A stretch of DNA of 53,265 bases. Origin: Atractiella rhizophila (taxonomy: Eukaryota). The notes beneath the pieces are model-generated. The model was not told the origin of the DNA, made no database searches, and saw only the letters and a list, made by a program, of their open reading frames with translations. The position numbers were made by a program, and so were the translations under genes. The stretch is from positions 1 through 53,265 of the forward strand of contig MU271493.1 in NCBI GenBank assembly GCA_021432655.1, written 5' to 3'. Numbering within the stretch: the first letter of the stretch is position 1; every line of letters begins with the position of its first letter. Shown here one piece after another: positions 664 through 51,900 of this stretch.

Positions 664-876
664 TGTTAGTTGTAGTGTGTTGTTTTGGTCATCTGCCTCT
701 TATGACTCTTATGACTCGTATGAGTCATCACTATGTAGTTTAGTTCTGCCTAGGAGTGTTGGTGCTTATTATTGACCACCAACCACTCCTAGGTATGTCT
801 CTCTATACTTCTCTAATGTGCTCATTATTGACCACCTACCACTCCTAGCCTTAGATCCTTACATGGTAGCGAGAGC
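664..876 (+). mobile_element. LTR (664-863, TG...CA) followed by a tRNA primer-binding site (864-876)
   Basis: Starts TGTTAG and ends CTTACA, immediately followed by TGGTAGCGAGAGC (initiator-Met-type PBS). Internal direct repeats (ttattgaccac..accactcctag x2; tatgactc x2). Confidence 0.7.
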
Positions 877-1357
877 TGGTGGCTAGGATTAATTTGGTCA
901 CACCTATCACCTTCCCCCTCCTCCAGACCACAATTTTCACCCTCCCACACTCAAATTTCGCTCAATTTCGATGATCAGAACAGATTTGTGACCCTCAAAC
1001 GTTCCTTTACCACCTTAGAAGGTTTCTGCCTACTCAGGAATCAAGAAAAATCGAATTCTATCACCTTACCACCCATCTCCTGCCTCAAAACGCACTTTGC
1101 CACCCTGGACTCAAACTTTGACGAATTTGGACGTTATAGGGCTTATTTTGATCGTGAAACACTGCGCTACAACTTTACTAGGAACCATCTTGGTCACAAT
1201 AAGCGAAAATTTCGAGATAGCCACTCCATCACCTCCTTCATACCCCCAAAACGCATTTTTCGACTTTTTGAAGTCAGATCTGGTCTGATCTGGACAATTT
1301 TATTGCCATTGGATTCACAATAGGCTATTCTACTATCCTACAACAGATCACCTTGAT

Positions 1358-2028
1358 AGCCATGTCGTCGGCTCTCTCATGTACCTTGCAGTTGCTACAC
1401 GCCCTGACATCGCCCACACTGTCTCTGTCCTCGGAAAATTCCTGTCCAATCCTGGCAAGAGGCACTGGGAAGCTGCCAAACACCTCCTGCACTATCCCAA
1501 GGGCACTCAAGACATGTGCATCAAGTATTCTGCCTCAGACTTCGATATCTCTCAGCCATTCAAGGCATATTGTGATGCAGACTTTGCGGGTTGCAAGGAT
1601 ACTGGCCGGTCTACTAGAGGATACCTCTTAACTGTTGGAGGAGGAGCAGTTAGTTGGAAGTTGCAGTCTCTGGTAGCGCTCTCAACCACAGAGGCAGAGT
1701 ACATCTCAGGGTATCAGCAGGACAAGAGGTGGTTTAGCTCAGAAGTCTTCTGCAGGAGATTGGCTTCGCTCCAAAAGGTTCGACAACACTTTTCACGGAC
1801 AGCAACAGCGCTTTGCAAGTCAGCAAGAATCCTGAGCACCATGGACGCATGAAGCACTTGGATCTTCGCTTCTACTGGCTCAGGGACACAGTAGAATCTG
1901 GACTCATCACCCCAGCCTTCTGCCCTGGCGAGTCTATGCCTGCAGACCTCCTCACCAAGGCTTTACCAGTTGCTGGAGTTGCAAAATTTCGAGAAATGAT
2001 GGGTCTGCGCCCCTACCCAAGTGTATGA
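1358..2028 (+). pseudogene. Ty1/copia RT C-terminus + RNase H fragment, frameshifted
   Basis: VGSLMYLAVATRPDIAH, YCDADFAG, ALSTTEAEY, then a frame change to NPEHHGRMKHLDLRFYW...ADLLTKAL (ORFs 1379-1852 and 1813-2028). Confidence 0.9.
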
Positions 2029-2245
2029 GGCAGTTATGGGGCGCAATAAAACTCTGTCCTCCTTCTGGGGGTTATAAGACGCCGCTTTAAGCGGTACGAG
2101 GATCTCTCTACTGGTTTTAGACATTTAACTAATATGTTTCTTTGTTTGATGTCGCTTCATGATGCCTTCATTTGGTGGGAGCTTCATTGGATGGTTATTC
2201 TGGATGGTTCTTGGATTTGATGGGAGCTTCAAGAGGCGGCTGCCC

Positions 2246-2421
2246 AGGTGGGAGTGTTGGATTAGGTGTTATATTTCATGGTGTTATGTTTGTGTGGTCA
2301 GCCACCTCTGTTTTGTTTGCTTCACTTCGGAGTTTTAGCCCCCTAGGGGGCAGTTTAGGCGGTCATCATCTTTGACCACCAATCACTGTCCCCTAGCTCC
2401 ATCCAGCATCAGATTCTCTCA
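2246..2421 (+). mobile_element. Polypurine tract (2246-2254) and probable 3' LTR (2255-2421)
   Basis: AGGTGGGAG followed by TGTTGG...TCTCA, downstream of the RNase H stop. Shares the ttgaccacca..cctag motif with the 664-863 LTR. Confidence 0.55.
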
Positions 2422-5010
2422 AATAGGACGATTCAGGAGACTATGGTCGCCGTGTTTGAAGAATCTGGACTTCCGCTCTTTCTCTGGCCATCTATCGCTT
2501 CAGCAGTTGTCCACATTCGCAACAGATCTCCCTCAGCTTCGATCAACCATGCTATTCCCCACACAAAACTCACTGGACTTACTCCAACCATCTCAAGATT
2601 CAGAATCATTGGATGCACTGCCTACGTTCAAGTTCAGAAGGATGAAAGGCCACACAGCTTAGGATCTCATACTCGAAAATGCGCATTTATAGGCTATTCC
2701 CTTGCAGCGAAAGGGTGGGAGTTCTGGGATCCTATTGCAAAGAAGGTCTACGTTCGAGACGTTGCCAGATTTGATGAGAGAGAGATGCTCTGCAAGGTGA
2801 GGAAGGAGAAGATTACGTTGGAAGAGCCACAGGGACCACTTGATGAATGGAAGGAGCATCAGGATCAGGTGGGAGATGGACAGAATAATGCTCCAGCCGC
2901 TCCTCCAGCCAGGATTTCGCTAGACGACGATGAAGAAGAAGAAGAAGGATGGATTCGACAGCCAGGAGCACCACCTACACCTCAGGACCAACCCAGACCA
3001 CTTGGAATACATTCTCCAAATCGGTTTCAGCCCCTACAGGTTGAAGAAGAACAAGAACAAGAACAAGAAAGAGAGCCATCTCCAGATCCGCTACAGCTTG
3101 TGCCTGAACGCCCTAGGACACCCCCACCTCGTCAGTACACCATGCAGAGAGATCCCTGGACAGGAGTTCACATGCCTAGATTCTCAGAGTCTCCAGATCC
3201 ACTCCAGATCCGCCCAACAACGCCAGATCAACCTCCTCCAGCAGCTTCAACACCTCCCCCTGTCAACAGGCCCTCAAAAATTTATTCTACGAGTAGAGGA
3301 CGACCTGTAGACAGATTTAGGACCCCAGAAGCACCTAAAAGCAATGAAGAAGGATCAGCAGACGAGCTTGGGATGTTGGTAAAGGAATGTGACGTACTCA
3401 CTGAGCCAGAGGCGATGGAATATGGCTATGTGCTTGTCACAGAGCATGCCATGAGTGCAGCAACAGGAGTAGAGGTCCCTCAGTCATATTCAAGAGCGAT
3501 GGCAAGCCCAAATGCAAAGGAATGGCATGAAGCGACAGTGAAGGAGATTCAATCTCACTTCGACAACAAGAGTTGGATTCTGGTCAAACCACCTAAAGGA
3601 GCAAAAATCGTTGGTTCTCGATGGGTGTTTGCGGTTAAGAAGAAGTGGGATGGTTCTATTGAGCGCTTCAAGGCCAGATTCGTCATCAAGGGGTTCTCTC
3701 AACGCCCTGGATTTGACTACTTTGACACTTTTGCATCTACGGTCAAATGGGCGACACTTAGGACGATCCTTTCGCTCACTTGTGTGTTGAACATGGAGTT
3801 GGAGTCAGTAGATATCTCTACGGCATTCCTCAACGGCGATATGGATGCAGAAGTCTATGCACAACAACCAGAAGGTCATCCGCAGGGTCCTCCAGAGTAC
3901 GTTCTGAAGCTAATCAAGGTCATGTATGGCACAAGGCAAGGAGGACGTCAATGGCAGAAGAAACTCGATAAGGAACTCGTCGATATGGGATTTAAGAAGA
4001 TCAAGAGCGACTCTAGTCTGTGGATTTACTCAAAGGGGGACATCAAAGTACTTGTCCCAGTCTTTGTGGATGATATTACGATCACTAGCACATCAAAGGG
4101 TGCTGTAGAGGACTTCAAGAGGGAGTTGGGGAAGCGATTCAAACTCAGAGACCTTGGACCAACGGAATTCCTACTTGGGGTTCGTATTAGGAGGGATAGA
4201 AAGCGAAGAATGATGTGGTTGGATCAAGAACAGTATGTCAAGGACCCTCTGGAACACCAACAGATGGACGATTGCAACCCTGTCCTTACTCCTCTCAATG
4301 TTGGACACGGTCTCAGCAAGCAGGACTGCCCCCAGACAAAGGAAGAACACGTTGTCGGCTCCATGATGATCTCCACTCGTCCAGATATCGCTCATGCAGT
4401 CTCTGTCCTTGGAAAGTACCTCTCTAACCCAGGAAAGAAGCACTGGGAAGCGGCCAAGCATCTTCTACAATACCTCAAAGGCACTCAGAACTTAGGAATT
4501 GAGTATTCTGCAGCTGGTTTCGACCTCAAGCAACCTTTTCACGCCTTCTACGATGCAGATTTTGCTGGGTGCAAGGATACTGGACGTTCTACGGGAGGCT
4601 ATCTCCTCAAGATAGGCAACGGGGCAGTCAGTTGGAGCAGCAAACTACAATCCCTCGTTGCCCTTTCTACTACTGAAGCAGAATATGTCTCAGGAGTCTC
4701 AGCAGGTCAAGAAGTTGTCTGGCTAAGGAATCTTTTAGAAGAGATTGGCTTCACTCCTCAAGGTCCTACTCCCCTCTTCACAGATAGCAGCAGCGCTCTC
4801 CAGGTATCCAAGAACCCTGAACACCATGGTCGAATGAAACATCTGCACCTTCGCTTGTATTGGCTCAGATATGTTGTTGAGATGGGCAAGATCAGTCCAG
4901 TCTTCTGTCCGAGGGCCATTATGCCAGCGGACCTCCTTACCAAGGCACTTCCAGTCGCCAGCGTGGACAAGTTTCGAGTTATGATGGGTTATGCCGCACC
5001 CTACTCCTAG
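2422..5010 (+). mobile_element. 5'-truncated Ty1/copia pol (integrase C-half, SH3-like, RT, RNase H)
   Basis: 855-aa ORF. NRTIQET...SGLPLFLW (integrase), CAFIGY, RWVFAVK..FKARFV.KGFSQRPGFDY, VDISTAFLNG, VFVDD (RT), YDADFAG/STTEAEY/ADLLTKAL (RNase H). Copia domain order; no gag, protease or downstream LTR. Confidence 0.95.
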
Positions 5011-26130: not shown

Positions 26131-27433
26131 TCAAACCTCTTGATGAATTCTCGCTTCTGTAGCGAAGTAACCCCGACCCGAAGCAACGGAACTAGTGTCT
26201 CCAGGCTGCTTTTCACCCAAGGTTTCCAACCTAAACACGTCTCAAGTCAGTTTATTAGGTCGAAGTACATCAGATCGCATACCTGTTGAGTTGAGCAGAT
26301 ATTGACTGGGTGACAGGCTGACGAGTGATTTTTGGACTAATCTCTTTCAACAAGCCAAGGCGAACAAGGATGGCTCGATAGATCGTCCACGACTCCGCCC
26401 CAAAACCAAACAACACCAACGCAGAGACACCAGCGACGATGCCCGACCACGCCGGCCAAGATAGTCCCTGATCTGGGAGGACCAAGACGTCGGATAGCTA
26501 TAAAAGAGCGTTAGATTGAAGAAACTGGCATGAAACAAAACCTTACACTCTCGTGCCAGTAGCCCCATGAGATGTACGGCGTAAGAGGTACCGAGTTCAG
26601 GAAATCCAACGTGCCCTTCACGCTCATAGGGGTAAAGATGAATACGTAACTGGCGGACAAGGCGCAGAGTCGGATGAAGCGAGAGAGAGTAATAGCCTGA
26701 CTGGACCCTTCCACGATTCTTTTGAAGTCGCGCCGATGCTTGAGAGCGCGAAAGATGATATAAACTACCAACAAACTCTCAGAACAGCTACAGAGTGAAA
26801 AGCAGAGACGAACCTGCACATATGGCTCCAAGGAATTGCAACAGAGTACTCCACACCAGCCATAACACAAGAGTCGCCCATGTTGGTGAAAATGTGAAGG
26901 CGCAACCGAGTCCTTTGACCAGCCCGAATCGACGGGATTGGTGAACAATGTGAAGAGCCATCAAAAGGACAGGGAAACCAAGGCAAAAGGCATATTCTTT
27001 AAGATGTCGACGCTGTTGACTTCGATGGCTGATCAAGAACGCTGTAGGGCTTAAGATTTGTGCCAGGTAGAGCGAAATGCAGAGAATGGACGCTCCCAAG
27101 CCAACTGGGGCGAACTGTTCGACCTGAGCGCATGGATCAGAAATATCAATAGCAGAGCCCAATGAACTAACCTTGGCAGAAATGTCACACCAAATTGGAG
27201 CGCGGTTGACGGCATCATTACGCCAGACAACGCAGTTGACCTGCTCGAGTTTAGAACGGATGGGATTAGGACATCTGAGAACGTACGAAAGCAATGAAAT
27301 TCAGTAACACAGTCCAAAACCCAAGGCAGAAACCCGAAGCATTGCCCTGTTGAAGATGCCAGGCCGTGGGGGCGAGATTAAGCAAGAATGAGAGGAAACT
27401 CAGAATGGTATAGATGATTGTAGTGGTCTCCAT
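26131..27433 (-). CDS. STE3: STE3-family mating pheromone receptor (7-TM GPCR); multi-exon
   Basis: METTTIIYTILSFLSFLLNLAPTAWHLQQGN...VNCVVWRNDAVNRAPIWCDISAK...ALHIVHQSRRFGLVKGLGC...ITLSRFIRL...PYISWGYWH...FGFGAE. Last exon ends ARIHQEV* at 26131. Confidence 0.95.
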
Positions 27434-34768: not shown

Positions 34769-35053
34769 ATGAACCCCCTTCAATACGCTCTCCATCCTGT
34801 CGAAGTCCCAGTCGACTCCAACCCTGCTAACGGCGGTGGATCTGCTGGAGGAGGAGGTTGTGAAATCGCAAAGAACGGTGGCGGTAGCGCTGGCGGCGGA
34901 GGTTGCACCATCACCAAGAACGGTGGAGGTAGCGCTGGCGGTGGAGGCTGCACCATCGCTAAGAACGGTGGTGGAAGCGCTGGTGGAGGAGGATGTGTTA
35001 TCGCCAAGAACGGTGGTGGAAGCGCTGGCGGTGGAGGCTGCATCGTCGCTTAA
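34769..35053 (+). CDS. Lipopeptide mating pheromone precursor, copy 2
   Basis: Same 94-aa protein as copy 1, in inverted orientation. Confidence 0.92.
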   Translation: MNPLQYALHPVEVPVDSNPANGGGSAGGGGCEIAKNGGGSAGGGGCTITKNGGGSAGGGGCTIAKNGGGSAGGGGCVIAKNGGGSAGGGGCIVA

Positions 35054-35586
35054 TGGTTTGTCTTCTTTCCTGGACTCCGACTGAAACTAAACTCCGCTAT
35101 CAGACATGCACTCATTCAAACGAAAAAGCCACCCAAAATTTACAACTCTATTCGCATGCTCGACTCTTCCTCACATCCGGTCGTGCTTCAATTTCCTCGT
35201 TCCCACGTCTTAATTCTTATTACTTCGCCTGTCGCTTTCTGCTTTCAAGTCATCGAAGTTCAAGAGTCCGACCTACCCTCCTTTCGCATCCCTTCTGCTG
35301 TTCTCAACAGAATTCATTTTGCGCTCTCGCATTGTGCATCTAGATCTCCCACCTTCGTTCAGACTCCATTTCCTTGTGATCCAATTAAGCGCATTGTTCG
35401 GTTTCTATGTTCCTCTGTCATGGCACTGTTATAGTCTCTGGTTTTCCCAACTTCGGCTCTTTCGTAGTGTTTGTCTTGCTTCTCGACGTCTGATACTAAA
35501 TGAATCATAACGTCTTTTTTTGTTGCATAAATATCGGCGTGTCCTTGTGGCCTTGCATGTTAGCGAGAGCACAGCATGAATTGCAT

Positions 35587-36760: not shown

Positions 36761-37045
36761 ATGAACCCCCTTCAATACGCTCTCCATCCTGTCGAAGTCC
36801 CAGTCGACTCCAACCCTGCTAACGGCGGTGGATCTGCTGGAGGAGGAGGTTGTGAAATCGCAAAGAACGGTGGCGGTAGCGCTGGCGGCGGAGGTTGCAC
36901 CATCACCAAGAACGGTGGAGGTAGCGCTGGCGGTGGAGGCTGCACCATCGCTAAGAACGGTGGTGGAAGCGCTGGTGGAGGAGGATGTGTTATCGCCAAG
37001 AACGGTGGTGGAAGCGCTGGCGGTGGAGGCTGCATCGTCGCTTAA
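36761..37045 (+). CDS. Lipopeptide mating pheromone precursor, copy 4
   Basis: Identical 94-aa ORF; equals copy 2 shifted by 1992 bp. Confidence 0.9.
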   Translation: MNPLQYALHPVEVPVDSNPANGGGSAGGGGCEIAKNGGGSAGGGGCTITKNGGGSAGGGGCTIAKNGGGSAGGGGCVIAKNGGGSAGGGGCIVA

Positions 37046-37578
37046 TGGTTTGTCTTCTTTCCTGGACTCCGACTGAAACTAAACTCCGCTATCAGACATG
37101 CACTCATTCAAACGAAAAAGCCACCCAAAATTTACAACTCTATTCGCATGCTCGACTCTTCCTCACATCCGGTCGTGCTTCAATTTCCTCGTTCCCACGT
37201 CTTAATTCTTATTACTTCGCCTGTCGCTTTCTGCTTTCAAGTCATCGAAGTTCAAGAGTCCGACCTACCCTCCTTTCGCATCCCTTCTGCTGTTCTCAAC
37301 AGAATTCATTTTGCGCTCTCGCATTGTGCATCTAGATCTCCCACCTTCGTTCAGACTCCATTTCCTTGTGATCCAATTAAGCGCATTGTTCGGTTTCTAT
37401 GTTCCTCTGTCATGGCACTGTTATAGTCTCTGGTTTTCCCAACTTCGGCTCTTTCGTAGTGTTTGTCTTGCTTCTCGACGTCTGATACTAAATGAATCAT
37501 AACGTCTTTTTTTGTTGCATAAATATCGGCGTGTCCTTGTGGCCTTGCATGTTAGCGAGAGCACAGCATGAATTGCAT

Positions 37579-45586: not shown

Positions 45587-45958
45587 AGGAGCAAGAAAAG
45601 TTAGTTTTAAGCCGTCTGTAATTCTTGCCAAATCCTGGACTCTTTCAGTTTGAATCTGTGCTTTGTCAACGTTCAAGATCCAACATCCAACATGTGCTAT
45701 GTCTACTTCCATTACCAGTCATCTGAATTCTACGATGTTTACCATACAGAGATTCGTGTTGGTCGTGATAACCTGAATGCTGAATGCTCTGCAGAAAGCT
45801 GAAATCGAAAACCATGACTCATTCACAGAGTTCCAACCCATCCTGAACTCTCCTGACCATCTCGTTCTCCCCTCGCCAATGTTAGGAGTTCGAAAATAAG
45901 GAGATTTAATCGAAGCTGTCGCGCAGCTGTTGGAGAAAGAAAACTTGGGTACAGCAGG

Positions 45959-48900
45959 ATGGATGAACTCATTCAATATTGCTTGGATGAGTTGGCGATG
46001 AGCGGTGTTCAGGGTGGGTACTCCCATTGTCTCGTCAAGATAGATTCTTGAATGTCCAGCCCTTGAAACGTTTTTATTTGTTGTTGAGCTGAGAGAGAGA
46101 GAAGTCGAGGAGATGTGGGAGGTGGGAGGAAGGAAGGGTTCGAGTCCCCCTTCTGACCAGTTTCTTATCTGGTCTTAGTGGAGCACATTATATAGAAAAA
46201 TTTTCTTACATATTGACTCTTACACATTGACAACAACTTGAAGCTAGATTTTCAGTCCAAGAAGCTCTTGATAAAAGTCAAAACTATCTTCGTTTGAAAA
46301 CAAGTGATTCACTTTGGTTAACCTTCCTCTGTCAGGCTGCTCTCCATCTGAACTCTCTAATTTCATTTCCCAATACTACAATACGGTAAATACATCCTAC
46401 CCACAAATCGTCGACGGTCGATTCTCCAACCTGATATGGAAGCACCTAATCGACTGCACGGAGACAAGAGTGTGGGCTTTAATACCCTCAGAACGAGAAG
46501 GGCAGGTTGGATTGGAAGGTATTGAAGGACGTGCCAACAGCGAAGACGTTGTCGATTCGAACTGTTCCAACTTACAGAAGGTTCAAACAAAATTTCTCGG
46601 CGAGGAGGAGAAGCTGCTTAGACGAGAAGAGTTAGGGAAGCGGTATGGAGATGAGAATCTGAGGCTTGGGGTCAATGAGGAGTTGATATGGATTGCGTTG
46701 ACAGGAACACATTCAAGGGTTTGCTGTTTCGTTCTTCCTCCTCTTCAGCCGGGGAAATGACAATGGCAGCCCTCGAGTATCACACCTCCCGTTTATCAAG
46801 TCCTTCAAATGGTTGCAATGAATCGAGAGAACGGATTAACTATTGTTGAACTCGGACGGTTGATGCAGAAGGATCAGAAGTCCATGTTCCACATCGTTCG
46901 AGTTCTTGTCCAATTGGGTCTCTGGTATGTGTTTCCCATACTTCCTTTCTGTTCTTTGAGCATCTGATAGACATATTGCTTGGCTTGACAGCGTCAAATT
47001 CAAGGTCATTGCTAATAAAGTAGCGACAAACCGAGTGATCCACGTTCGCTTCATATCAAAATCTGCAGAATACAAACTTTCCGCCCAGGACGATGATACA
47101 GTGAGCAAGAAGGGTCAAAGGACCAAAGGAAACGGCTTTGCCCCTACACCTGTCGATATTAAAGGCAAAGGGATGGAGAAACAGACCGTTAACGCTGCTG
47201 CAGACCGAGAAGGGGAGGAAGAACCACAACTGCTCCTTCCTATTGGTCCTGAACACCTCAACACTAATCGAAGCCTTGTAGCGAAGAGGATTGTCCGGGC
47301 ACTGAAGGAAAGGGATAATATGAATAAGGTGCTTCGTCGAGAGGACCTTGGTCCTGCAATCGTACGCCATCTTTCGCCATGTGTTAGTCCACACGGCTCA
47401 TTTTTACTCTGGAAAGGGTCTTCGTTTGTATACCAAAGAAGACAAACGGAAACTTGCGTCACTCCTTAGGACTTTGTATGACAAGGGGGTGTTAGAATTG
47501 ATCAAAGTACCGATCATGAAAGTGAATGGGGAAGCAGCTTTCGTCAAATGCTTGAGATTGGTGGACAGAGGAAAAAGTTGGTTCTCCGTATTTCCTGTTT
47601 GGCACGTCTAAAAAGAGTTACTAGAGGAGGACAACGAGCTCGAGAACCTGGAAAGTGCGCTCGACGGTACGACTGAAAAGCGCAGAGTTGGTAGCGTCGA
47701 TATCTGCTTTCCTGCCTTAAACATCTCGATTGACAGGCAGATCGTGGATTTGCTGCTCCAAGTTGGTCCATTGGGGATGTTGAATATCGTCTGTGTAGTC
47801 AACCTCAATCTGAAAGTGTCCTTATTCGCTAACTGACAGAACATCTCCATGCTTTTGGGCGAGCTTTACATCCGTCTGGTGGACCAAGCACTTATGCGAC
47901 TCGAACGAGATCTTCCCCCTTCAAACCTCCGCGACCTAACGGTCGTTTCAGTCTTGGAATTTCATGGGCGAGAGAAGCGTGCCCGGTTCTTCACCCTCGA
48001 CGCATACAAAATGAACTGCTTCGACAACGGACTGGACCCGATACAAGCTCTGAAAGCGACAGAAGCGGGAAAGTTGCTGTCAAGAAGCGGCCAGGAAGAT
48101 GGTCTTGACGCATCTGGTACTGGGGGGTGGTCTCCTTTGGAGACTGTGGGTTATTACCAGACGGTCGAGGAGCTTCAATCCTACTGTGCCAAATTAGATG
48201 TTCGCACAGTCGTGTCCGTGGGCTCAAAGAAGAATACAAAGCGAGCGCCAATCGACCCTGTGACAGGAGAAGTGAAAAAAGGCCGACCTAGAAAGTATCC
48301 CGTTGGTTCGACAGCCGCTGATAGGAGGAAACTGAAGCAAGAGGGGGAAGAAAGCATCCCAACAGGTAGCTTAACGAAGGCAAGATCAAGAAAAGGCAAA
48401 ACGCCAAGAAAGAAGGGATTGGAGAAAGATGTCGATGGTGAGGCGGAAGGCGATATGGCCGCCGAGGACACCTCAGACAAGGCGTCAAACCTAACAGTAA
48501 ATCCAACAAAGGAGAAACAGAAGGCGGTGGTTATCGATGTGGATGCGGAAGCTGGAGAGGCTGACCCGTCGAAGAAGGCGAAAGCGATAAAAGAAGTATC
48601 TACGCGGACTGCCAGACGCAACAAGCGACAGCGGCTAGATGAAGAGGCACCTGAGGTGGATGAACCATCAACGAAGAGACCTAAGCGGAAATCCACCAGA
48701 ATTGTGCCAGAGCCCGCAGGTACTTCACAGGGGGACCTATCCCCTTCGCCTGACAAGATGACGCTGAAAAAGACAAAAGACCCTCCGTCAGCAGCCCCGA
48801 TTTCTAACCATACAAGACCGCTGCGGGTTACTCGCTCAACAGTAGACGCTTTAGGAGGCACCGACAGCCAAAGCAATACTGTAACGATCGAAGCCTTAGA

Positions 48901-51900
48901 TGACGGTCCTCGTAACAGTCCGAGTACCAAGGACCCCGTAAACGACACTTCGAATGCGGGTCCTCCTAAACGTAAAGCGGCGGAACTTACCCCTGAGAGA
49001 CCTTCCAAGTCATCACGTGTAGAGGGGGAGGTTATTCACATTGTGGAAGCTAACGAGATCCCGGGAGTAACGACAGCTAGAAGATCCAACGCATCGCGGC
49101 AAAAGAGAATCCTCACAACCGTGGTGCGACAGACAGAGCTGTTATCGTTGGTGAAGGAGTGTGGTGGAATGATTGACCTGAATCACGAGTTCTACAGAAC
49201 CTTGACAGAACGAAACTTGCAAGCTATATCTAGGAGCACCGGAAAGCAAACATATTCCGTGGACAAGCGCAGTTTGAACTCTGATATCGTCGCTTTAGTA
49301 GATGAAGGCTTACTCAAGAAGTTCGAAACTCAGGTTCCTGGATTCGCAGCTCAGCAAAAGAAAACGATTCTTCATTTGCCGGACATCATGCTCACTAGCC
49401 CAGAGATGCAAGCTTTCATGCTGACGATCCAGAATCGAGCTCTCGCTCCGCCTAAGAAGAAGACGGATAATGTTCCGAGCGCTACGGCTACTATAGACCG
49501 TGGACCACTATCCGAATTCTCCCCAGACGAGGGGAAGGGACAAAAAAGAACCGTAGCCGTAATTCGTGGCTCCAAAGAATATTTCGCAGCTCATTGGCGA
49601 GTTTCTTCGCAACGTTTCGGATATTCCCTCGCTCGCTTTGTTCGCGCCAAAGATTTCCATAGATGCCTCATACAGCTTTCACAGACTTCTCATGGAAACC
49701 ATGTCCTTGTTGGCAAAGGTGCTCGAATTGTTTCCATGGCGGCATTATTTCAAGAGATACCGCTCAGGGTTTACACGTCAGTCATACCGATTGCAACCGT
49801 CGACCCTGGATTCCAGGCATTCTACGCCGAAAACAAGGATGTCTTGCTGAAGAACCTGCCACAAACATTTCAAGAGAAGATCAAACTTCTGAAAAGTATA
49901 TCGCGGGATCGGATGCTGCGATATCTAGAATTGCTCCAGGAGCTGGGGTTGTTACACGGTCTCTGCACGGTACCTGTCGGCACTGCAGATTCACTCCAGG
50001 TCGATATAGACGGCCTTCCGTTGTCCTTCGGATTTGTAGAAACAAGCAAAGATGCTTCCCATTGGTGTTTGCACGATTGGGCAGGAGTCTACTCTCTCCA
50101 ATCTCCAGAAATGCCTCTGCAAAGCTTGCATGCCGTGTCTGATTCTCTCGAACTGGAAGTGTTCTGGACAGAGTTGGAAAGAGCTTCTGTTTTCCAGCCT
50201 TCAAATGCCGTCGAAACTTCAACTCTCCCACCCTCTCAAGAACTTTCTGCCCGCGCGGCTTCATTACGAATCCCCCTCACTTTTCAAGGCGATAGCGTTC
50301 TAGTGGAATCTTTAAAGAAGTCTCGAAACTGGACCAAGGGTTACATTTTGACTGATCATCAAAAGAGCTATTTGCGAAGCTGTAAAAGTTCTGGCGAGGT
50401 TAATTTTGAGAATATAGAGGAGGTAGAAACGCTCGCTGATACGCTTTTGGCCCCTGCCGATGTGGTGATGGCTTTTCTTCAGACGGGACGCAAGTCGAAG
50501 AAGAAGGCTACAAAGAGATCCTGGAAAGCTACACCGGCAACGAAGGCGAACTTAGATTCCAATGCAGCACAAGAGGCAAGAAAGAGGATTGCTTATAAAG
50601 CCAAGAAAGCGGGAGAACAGCGGACAAAAGATTGGGACGCAATGATCAACAGATTTCTGAAGATGCACAATCTTGACTGCATCGACAAGACATTACAAGA
50701 TCAGCTGTACCATCGTTATATCAATCAACCGTCTCCAACCACTGTGAAGATGATCCAAGATGAGCTCAATAACTGGCTCCGTTCACGATCCGCAGATCAG
50801 CCCTTTACGCAGGGTATGGGTAACACTTCATTGATTACCATTCAACGAGTTCCTCTTCTGCGGCCCTCGAAAAAGACTCCGAGAGCTCCTTTTCTTCCTG
50901 TGGTTGAAAACATCAGTAAGCTGACTGTGCCCATCCGATGAAATTTCACCTTGTGTGTTTGAAGGGGAATCGGAAGTGCGACGAAGAAAACATTTTACAA
51001 CCGAAGAGGATGTCGCCATCATCGAGGCAGCCGTCATTCTTAAAGCGCGAGCTACTCGTCTTGGGTTTCCTACAATAAAGTGGTCTGAAGCGAAGGGGAA
51101 TATCATTCCTGATCGCACTCAAGATTCCGCAATCAAGAGGGCTGCCATCCTGCTCAAGCGAAAGGAAGAGTTCGCGTATTACTCGAAACTTTTGCAAGCT
51201 TGGACCCACTTTTACAACCGCAAGGTGCAAGAGAATAACCTGCCAGAGGAACTTCAGGATGACAACCCTTTGCTTATGGACAAACATTTTATGTACCTGC
51301 GTGATAACCTCGATCGGGATCGGATGTCAGCTCCACCCTACTACTACGCCAGGACTAACTTTTTTATAGACGTCACGACTGTACCCAGGATATCGCCCCA
51401 ACAGACGAACTAGATCTTCCCTCTGATTCAGAAGATTTTCTACGAACGCACGATGTGAAACGAGCGTCTGATGAACTGGTCATGACGGACAATGATTACT
51501 GGGCACACCCTCATAAAGGGAGAGTGAATCATAATCTCAGAGCAAAAGAGTTGGTTAGCGAAGTGTTTGCTCGCCGTCTGAACCTGTCTGCATCCGAAGA
51601 CAACAAAGCTGAAGCGCTGGATCGAAAGCTCTGGGTAACAACACAAGCAATTAAGGTATTCCCTTTCATCTACTGGAACAAGCTACCTGAACCGAAGAAT
51701 AGATGATGACGGCGCTCAGGACCGAGGACTTTGATGGACAAAAAATGGCGAGTATGCTTCAAGAGACTGCTGGAGAGGAGATAACCGAAGAAGGAATCGA
51801 GTATTTGCATGAGACCGGATGCTTGGTTCCGGCCAAAGGAGACCTTGCGAAACGTGTTCCTGGCAGGAATTATGCCTTTTCAGACAGGTTGCTTTCGCCA

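Follow-up and report, generated by a model that had tools for sequence, protein, structure and literature searches.

The window, i.e., the whole 53,265-nt stretch of Atractiella rhizophila DNA that was analysed, carries from position 45959 onwards a gene that we identify as TFC3/Sfc3 (GTF3C1), a TFIIIC subunit gene, by its domain matches and named homologues. The B-block_TFIIIC domain (PF04182) is found in exon 3 with an E-value of 1.3e-8 (over the cut-off) and the GTF3C1/TFC3 extended winged helix (PF24101) in the long exon with an E-value of 1.5e-5 (under the cut-off). The best TFC3 homologues share only 25-29% identity, and the top full-length ones are named proteins from Pucciniomycotina, followed by Agaricomycetes. 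A homologue search using exon 2 alone found nothing. The gene and its upstream border are composed as follows:

45746 to 45752, plus strand: poly(A) sites belonging to the dual-specificity phosphatase gene next upstream (DSPc, PF00782), recognised in runs X3 and X5 by loose poly(A) ends
45959 to 46013, plus strand: TFC3 exon 1 (MDELIQYCLDELAMSGVQ plus G), ATG at 45959, 18 codons plus G, drawn after orthologue N-termini
46014 to 46335, plus strand: TFC3 intron 1, 322 nt, phase 1, GTGGGT...TGTCAG, at the same position as in orthologues, single copy plus allele
46336 to 46718, plus strand: TFC3 exon 2, without in-frame ATG
46770 to 46924, plus strand: TFC3 exon 3 with the B-block_TFIIIC domain (PF04182), where the deposited model begins (MVAMNRENG)
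47840 to 50938, plus strand: TFC3 long exon with the GTF3C1/TFC3 extended winged helix

Intron 1 is set at 46014-46335 by alignment of orthologue N-termini with the joined exons 1 and 2 of the gene. Once joined, the two exons read MDELIQYCLDELAMSGVQG before and CSPSEL after the joint, in register with orthologue starts (e.g., MDELLHHCLRELSFDGDLG before the joint and C after it). This joint is not in the RNA contigs, and the intron is delimited by homology. Eight neighbouring introns, all seen as GT..AG joints in RNA contigs, measure 48-67 nt against the 322 nt of intron 1, namely five further ones of TFC3 (51, 67, 55, 48 and 51 nt) and three in the upstream gene (57, 52 and 48 nt). The initial annotation had read a TFIIIC subunit gene here, with a first exon absent from the ORF track and an oversized first intron of 322 nt. 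The subunit is TFC3/Sfc3, the exon is real and matches orthologue N-termini, and homology with orthologue starts bears out the intron. That the other introns are much shorter is likewise correct, but their measured range is slightly wider than the ~45-55 nt it gave. The deposited protein (P0001) lacks exons 1 and 2, or ~160 N-terminal residues, and starts at an internal Met in exon 3, which affects 45959-46808; the gene model is corrected here by restoring its first two exons. Two proteins from other species (P0033 and P0115) begin at the same place, perhaps through the same annotation trap. Since exon 2 has no in-frame ATG, the first winged-helix region cannot be translated in full from an RNA without exon 1. 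Between the poly(A) sites of the phosphatase gene and the start codon, ~207 nt are left for the TFC3 promoter and 5' UTR. B-box look-alikes in this promoter at ~45828 and ~45887 were discarded, as they are without C61 or G/A57 and reach at most 10.5 bits.

Intron 1 contains GGTTCGAGTCC at 46137-46147, the sole exact GGTTCGANTCC in the window, as part of a longer element:

46136 to 46157, plus strand: extended B-box GG-GTTCGAGTC-CCCCTTCTGAC, core at 46138-46146, with T66, G70 and C72 (tRNA numbering) of the orthologue consensus kept

The B-box consensus as given in PMC4228148 is GWTCRANNC, and GTTCGAGTC at 46138-46146 agrees with it in both haplotypes. The allele of intron 1 differs at five positions, among them the first G of the 11-mer, so that the second haplotype (L002) reads CGTTCGAGTCC, with a G-to-C change in the first base and an intact core GTTCGAGTC. 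As position 52 varies in orthologues (G14, A6, C4, T1; n = 25), this change is tolerated. The perfect B-box of the initial annotation is thus present and unique in the window, but as an 11-mer it is polymorphic at its first base. Its reading as a motif without a tRNA body holds: ARAGORN calls no tRNA in intron 1 and no Rfam match comes near the gathering score. At lowered thresholds, ARAGORN returned only noise with huge introns, and intron 1 folds no better than its shuffles (z -0.45). A matrix built from 24 orthologue groups, with the window left out, ranks 46136 first in the window with 17.7 bits (next 11.8); the L002 allele scores 16.1 bits and the training sequences 12.8-26.8 bits. No site of this quality was found close to the 5' end of TFC1 or TFC7 of this genome, whose best sites reach 12.2 and 15.5 bits and lie ~2.6 kb away from the start of the gene. 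A genome search did not find TFC8, which is no evidence of its absence.

In this genome alone, a motif spotted after the fact is weak evidence and could be due to chance. GGTTCGANTCC occurs 270 times in the 51.5 Mb genome (~0.002 expected per 322 nt) and GWTCRANNC 29,075 times (~0.18 expected per 322 nt). Chance, or the recent insertion of a SINE or tRNA fragment in this lineage, would agree with the polymorphic first G and with the genome-wide excess of B-box 11-mers, which are 2.7 times as frequent as the reversed control (270 vs 101) and of which many lie in a SINE-like repeat family. Yet intron 1 has two matches in the genome, itself and its allele, and is thus single-copy and no high-copy SINE or TE insertion, an origin that the initial annotation had named as fatal to its proposal. 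The flanks of the box are moreover unlike the repeat family, and the same intron is boxed in all 24 long-intron orthologue groups among the matches listed, by which this extremely unlikely explanation is largely refuted. The conclusion that the motif is non-random follows solely from this conservation test. The repeat family, a candidate SINE, is dispersed, ends in GGTTCGAGTCC plus a T-rich tail and makes up about one third of 30 sampled B-box matches (L004, L010-L012, L017, L020-L022, L029 and L030).

Orthologues were collected in a metagenome scan with a back-translated exon-1 protein consensus, a query that is blind to intron content. A slightly stricter exon-1 pattern gave 0 false matches in viral contigs and 5 in prokaryote genomes; the exon-1 pattern is also blind to genes whose intron falls earlier in exon 1. 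At least 120 loci were found, 28 of which were dropped for having no start codon; in 12 of the remaining 92, intron 1 could not be delimited, and 80 loci were kept. The 12 undelimited loci comprise five with a box, two that end within 60 nt, one that is intronless (probably a transcript), one that is probably not TFC3 and three truncated ones, L119, L123 and L143, which show no box over the 245-301 nt of sequence present. Loci were grouped at 80% exon-2 identity (alternatively 70%), and as the groups share ancestry, the counts below are not independent events. A quick tree with SH-aLRT support only was made with four outside groups included and the window's own protein left out.

Among the matches listed, intron 1 lies at the same phase-1 position in all 80 kept loci, and GTTCRANNC is present on the sense strand in 55 of the 56 basidiomycete loci with an intron 1 of at least 70 nt, or in 56 of 56 if either strand is counted. 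The conservation in basidiomycete orthologues by which the initial annotation had proposed to judge the box is complete at the level of groups: all 24 long-intron groups among the matches listed carry a sense GTTCRANNC (0.58 expected from shuffles), as do 15 out of 15 at 70% grouping (0.42 expected). The controls are far lower, with 1/64 downstream introns, 0/21 exon-2 windows, 3/22 upstream windows and, for the reversed motif, 1/24. By strand, 18 groups have the motif in sense only, six on both strands and none in antisense only (24 groups among the matches listed). In L096, the sense-strand box has lost its C61, and it is the opposite strand that reads as a complete box, C72 included. Among the matches listed, intron 1 contains the box in none of the 14 short-intron loci and in none of the 10 non-basidiomycete loci.

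On the tree, the box is found in Rhodotorula-like, Sporobolomyces-like and many Agaricomycete-like branches. The seven boxless short-intron groups (14 loci, intron 1 of 46-54 nt) form one Agaricales clade (support 89) nested near Panaeolus, which argues for a single loss in the sample. Judged by these sequences, the box dates far back and disappeared a single time in the sample, intron 1 shrinking to normal size alongside. Since the short-intron groups are one clade, the link of intron length to the motif rests on one loss. As this clade has neither the box nor a strong replacement (best 4.0-10.6 bits within -860..+1300), the site is dispensable. The candidate replacements were rejected as weak sites; the best of them, in L065, lies on the opposite strand at -72 and scores 10.6 bits. 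One short-intron lineage (L063, L065, L111 and L118) has a GC donor in intron 1 and a weak antisense box ~20 nt before the start codon. Two further loci have Pol III elements upstream: in L143, intron 1 is preceded at ~229 nt by a strong B-box whose tail is tRNA-like (without ARAGORN or Rfam call), and L049 has a tRNA-His gene just upstream of TFC3. In both, the sequence present has no intronic box, and the upstream Pol III element may exert the same control in another form. Some other short strings, all found after the fact, are common to several loci: TGGAGCA in intron 1 of the window (46179-46186), L046, L129, L143 and L152, GATTCTTGAAT in the window (46043-46053) and L143, and GCACCTCRACGC in Rhodotorula-like and Sporobolomyces-like loci.

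The element itself was compared over the 24 groups plus the window. T-stem pairs are at shuffle level, and a full stem and an A-box-like motif are each present in 1/25. T-arm hairpins seen by eye in a few orthologues failed a covariation test, and a T5 run follows the box in 6/24 groups. In 12 orthologue loci no Rfam match was obtained, for which a snoRNA reading was also set aside. The make-up of a tRNA gene or tRNA-derived SINE (A-box, T-stem pairing, terminator, repeated body) is thus not found, nor is that of an intronic Pol III unit of the Polr3e MIR type, in which A and B boxes lie ~25 bp apart. Downstream of the box, T66 (14/24), G70 (15/24) and C72 (19/24) are enriched, counts that are uncorrected and come from related rows. 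According to PMC11724288, the B-box alone sets TFIIIC residence and the base contacts of tau91 downstream of it are conserved at ETC loci. In our own reading of the table of PMC3395662, position 72 is C and position 71 is G in every one of the eight yeast ETC sites. Compared by eye with this ETC1-8 table (10-base 3' extension ending in GC), the basidiomycete sites keep C72 and G70, but have G71 in 5/25 only. The basidiomycete intronic box has the B-box consensus, the lack of an A-box and tRNA body and the conservation of an ETC site, with a 3' extension that agrees in part, and is called ETC-like here.

That the box would be the promoter or T-loop of a small intronic Pol III RNA, affecting TFC3 through Pol III transcription as in the Polr3e MIR, is quite unlikely. 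The extension does resemble the 3' strand of tRNA genes (C72 in 5/5 tRNA-like loci checked, and many tRNA-like matches), an RNA contig begins 58 nt upstream of the box, at about tRNA-gene distance, and in 9/25 introns the box is preceded at 27-54 nt by a second motif, YAYGTGAT. Against such an RNA speak the missing A-box and T-stem covariation, the few terminators, the lack of any Rfam or ARAGORN match, and the box of L096 on the opposite strand. Placement points the same way: in some orthologues, the box lies as near as 24 nt to the 5' splice site or 8 nt to the 3' splice site. YAYGTGAT, near the 5' splice site (intron 1 positions 11-21) of L038, L043, L047, L061, L062, L067, L081, L095 and L112 and not in the window, is also present in 8/35 upstream regions, including three short-intron groups, and is possibly the site of a Pol II factor.

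Another protein with a similar near-palindromic site, or a splicing element in the pre-mRNA, is a very improbable source of the conservation. An RNA element would likewise give the strand distribution described above, with the sense strand always represented. Nonetheless, the consensus of PMC4228148 is matched at every invariant position, the motif varies where B-boxes vary and keeps C72, and it is located in the very gene of the B-box-binding subunit. The intron 1 box is therefore best described, as far as its letters tell, as a conserved ETC-like TFIIIC site of a DNA-type rather than tRNA- or SINE-type pattern. Binding of TFIIIC to it is what we infer from the sequence together with known TFIIIC biochemistry and structures.

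Yeast ETC sites are described in PMC3395662 as intergenic, often in divergent intergenes, and as conserved among sensu stricto yeasts. The basidiomycete element shares with ETC and COC sites an isolated B-box, with a 3' extension that matches in part, and no tRNA body, but it is intronic. Among mammals, intron 1 of Polr3e contains a MIR that PMC5358760 describes as a conserved Pol III-type element, with a proposed negative feedback through Pol II interference. In both cases, intron 1 of a gene for the Pol III machinery holds a conserved element. The MIR forms a complete antisense unit with A and B boxes that Pol III transcribes, whereas here the B-box is lone and in sense, with no sign of a Pol III unit. 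The closest likeness is to ETC6 of S. cerevisiae, through which, as Kleinschmidt, LeBlanc and Donze reportedly found in 2011, TFC6 is autoregulated from its own promoter. Here too, an A-box-less extended B-box with C72 occurs at the gene of a tauB subunit, and self-regulation of a Pol II gene by TFIIIC is proposed. The differences are that the gene is TFC3, the direct reader of the B-box, instead of TFC6, that the site lies within the transcription unit, in intron 1, instead of upstream, and that it is kept across two basidiomycete subphyla, without G71. The convergence suggested by the initial annotation stands with respect to yeast TFC6 only; within Basidiomycota, the site looks inherited and not like a local novelty. 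The openly accessible papers that were searched do not describe any B-box in intron 1 of basidiomycete TFC3.

Two further stretches of the intron are of interest, the first of them for its presence in an RNA contig:

46079 to 46335, plus strand: part of intron 1 within a 6,058-nt RNA contig (run X3), through internal start or retention, the two being inseparable here
46113 to 46178, plus strand: 21-codon ORF spanning the box inside intron 1, its stop overlapping a possible cryptic 3' splice site (CTGAC at 46154 ... TAG at 46178)

The 6,058-nt TFC3 contig starts at 46079, is unspliced to 46335 and has the five listed downstream introns spliced; exon 1 is uncovered. Run X3 consists of spliced, polyadenylated contigs, and runs X4, X5 and X8 are without cover of intron 1. 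An assembled contig is not a molecule, does not reveal where an RNA starts and loses its short tips. This contig therefore shows only that intron-1 sequence occurs in RNA, and the missing exon-1 cover, given the loss of short tips, is no evidence. We take the contig as no more than a weak hint. Retention of intron 1 leads to a translation stop after 12 codons, and a possible use of the cryptic 3' splice site at 46178 would lead to one after 5 codons. In an RNA like this contig, seven ATGs precede the end of exon 2, none of them in the TFC3 frame within exon 2. In a relative, the spliced full-length form is seen: in the Logan proteins of a Pleurotus cluster, exon 1 stands at the N-terminus and is joined to exon 2.

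Our best reading, which we consider probable and which in outline is that of the initial annotation, is negative feedback on TFC3 by TFIIIC at the intronic box. The large size of intron 1 in basidiomycete TFC3 would be due to its content, a conserved extended B-box without A-box that would serve as a DNA site of the ETC type for TFIIIC, 80-330 bp past the start codon. With TFIIIC in ample supply, its tauB module, in which Tfc3 is the very subunit that reads DNA, would occupy the box, with tauA oriented towards the promoter, and less productive TFC3 mRNA would be made. The most likely target is Pol II on the compact promoter or shortly beyond it, and we favour an effect on initiation or early elongation. 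When TFIIIC is scarce, tRNA genes would draw it off the box and TFC3 would be released. The negative sign of the effect is taken from the analogy with yeast ETC6/TFC6. Several observations weigh against the feedback. One Agaricales clade lives without the box, none of the non-basidiomycete loci among the matches listed has it in intron 1, the three undelimited loci L119, L123 and L143 are boxless over the sequence present, and the yeast G71 is not kept. Moreover, the discussion in PMC5358760 ascribes the roadblock at Polr3e to TFIIIB or Pol III and not to TFIIIC alone.

A more specific form, which is possible but doubtful, is that TFIIIC bound in intron 1 decides between two TFC3 RNAs, i.e., the spliced full-length message and an intron-1-retaining or internally started RNA. 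The latter would carry upstream ORFs that end in stops and could yield at most a Tfc3 without its first ~160 residues. If true, a Pol III factor would set its own level via a Pol II start-site or splicing choice made from an intronic DNA site, and that site would have been retained since early basidiomycetes.

Bound TFIIIC might also serve as a positive or architectural element (nucleosome positioning, boundary or a tether to the nuclear periphery like that of ETC/COC sites) without any dose-sensing feedback, which we regard as unlikely. PMC3395662 describes ETC sites that act as insulators and tethers, the TFC3 promoter is ~207 nt away from a gene with far higher contig depth (depth being a poor measure), and in five of the seven boxless groups the upstream neighbour is RINT1 instead of PRELI, a change that goes along with the loss. 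However, boxed TFC3 genes occur in at least four upstream arrangements, tandem or divergent (PRELI, divergent Vps36, tandem phosphatase and others), so the box travels with TFC3 and not with a given neighbour, and if the box were a generic boundary, nothing would explain its presence in the very gene that encodes the DNA-binding subunit of TFIIIC. Negative feedback, to return to the preferred reading, would suggest that control of TFIIIC dose via its own binding site is not an oddity of budding yeast and has been reached through different subunits and positions. It would also give a lone B-box, kept over a very long span, a clear candidate job, for which the clade with the natural loss is a control, and it makes testable whether TFIIIC alone, without TFIIIB and Pol III, impedes Pol II inside a gene.

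Elsewhere in the window, identical ORF sets are found at 34963-35434 and 36955-37426, 1,992 nt apart, as a recent tandem duplication or an assembly repeat. Retrotransposon-like reading frames occupy 832-5010, one of them of 883 aa with broken pieces before it, which we take from their motifs to be Copia-like. On the minus strand at 26347-27300 lie pieces that resemble a STE3-type pheromone receptor gene.
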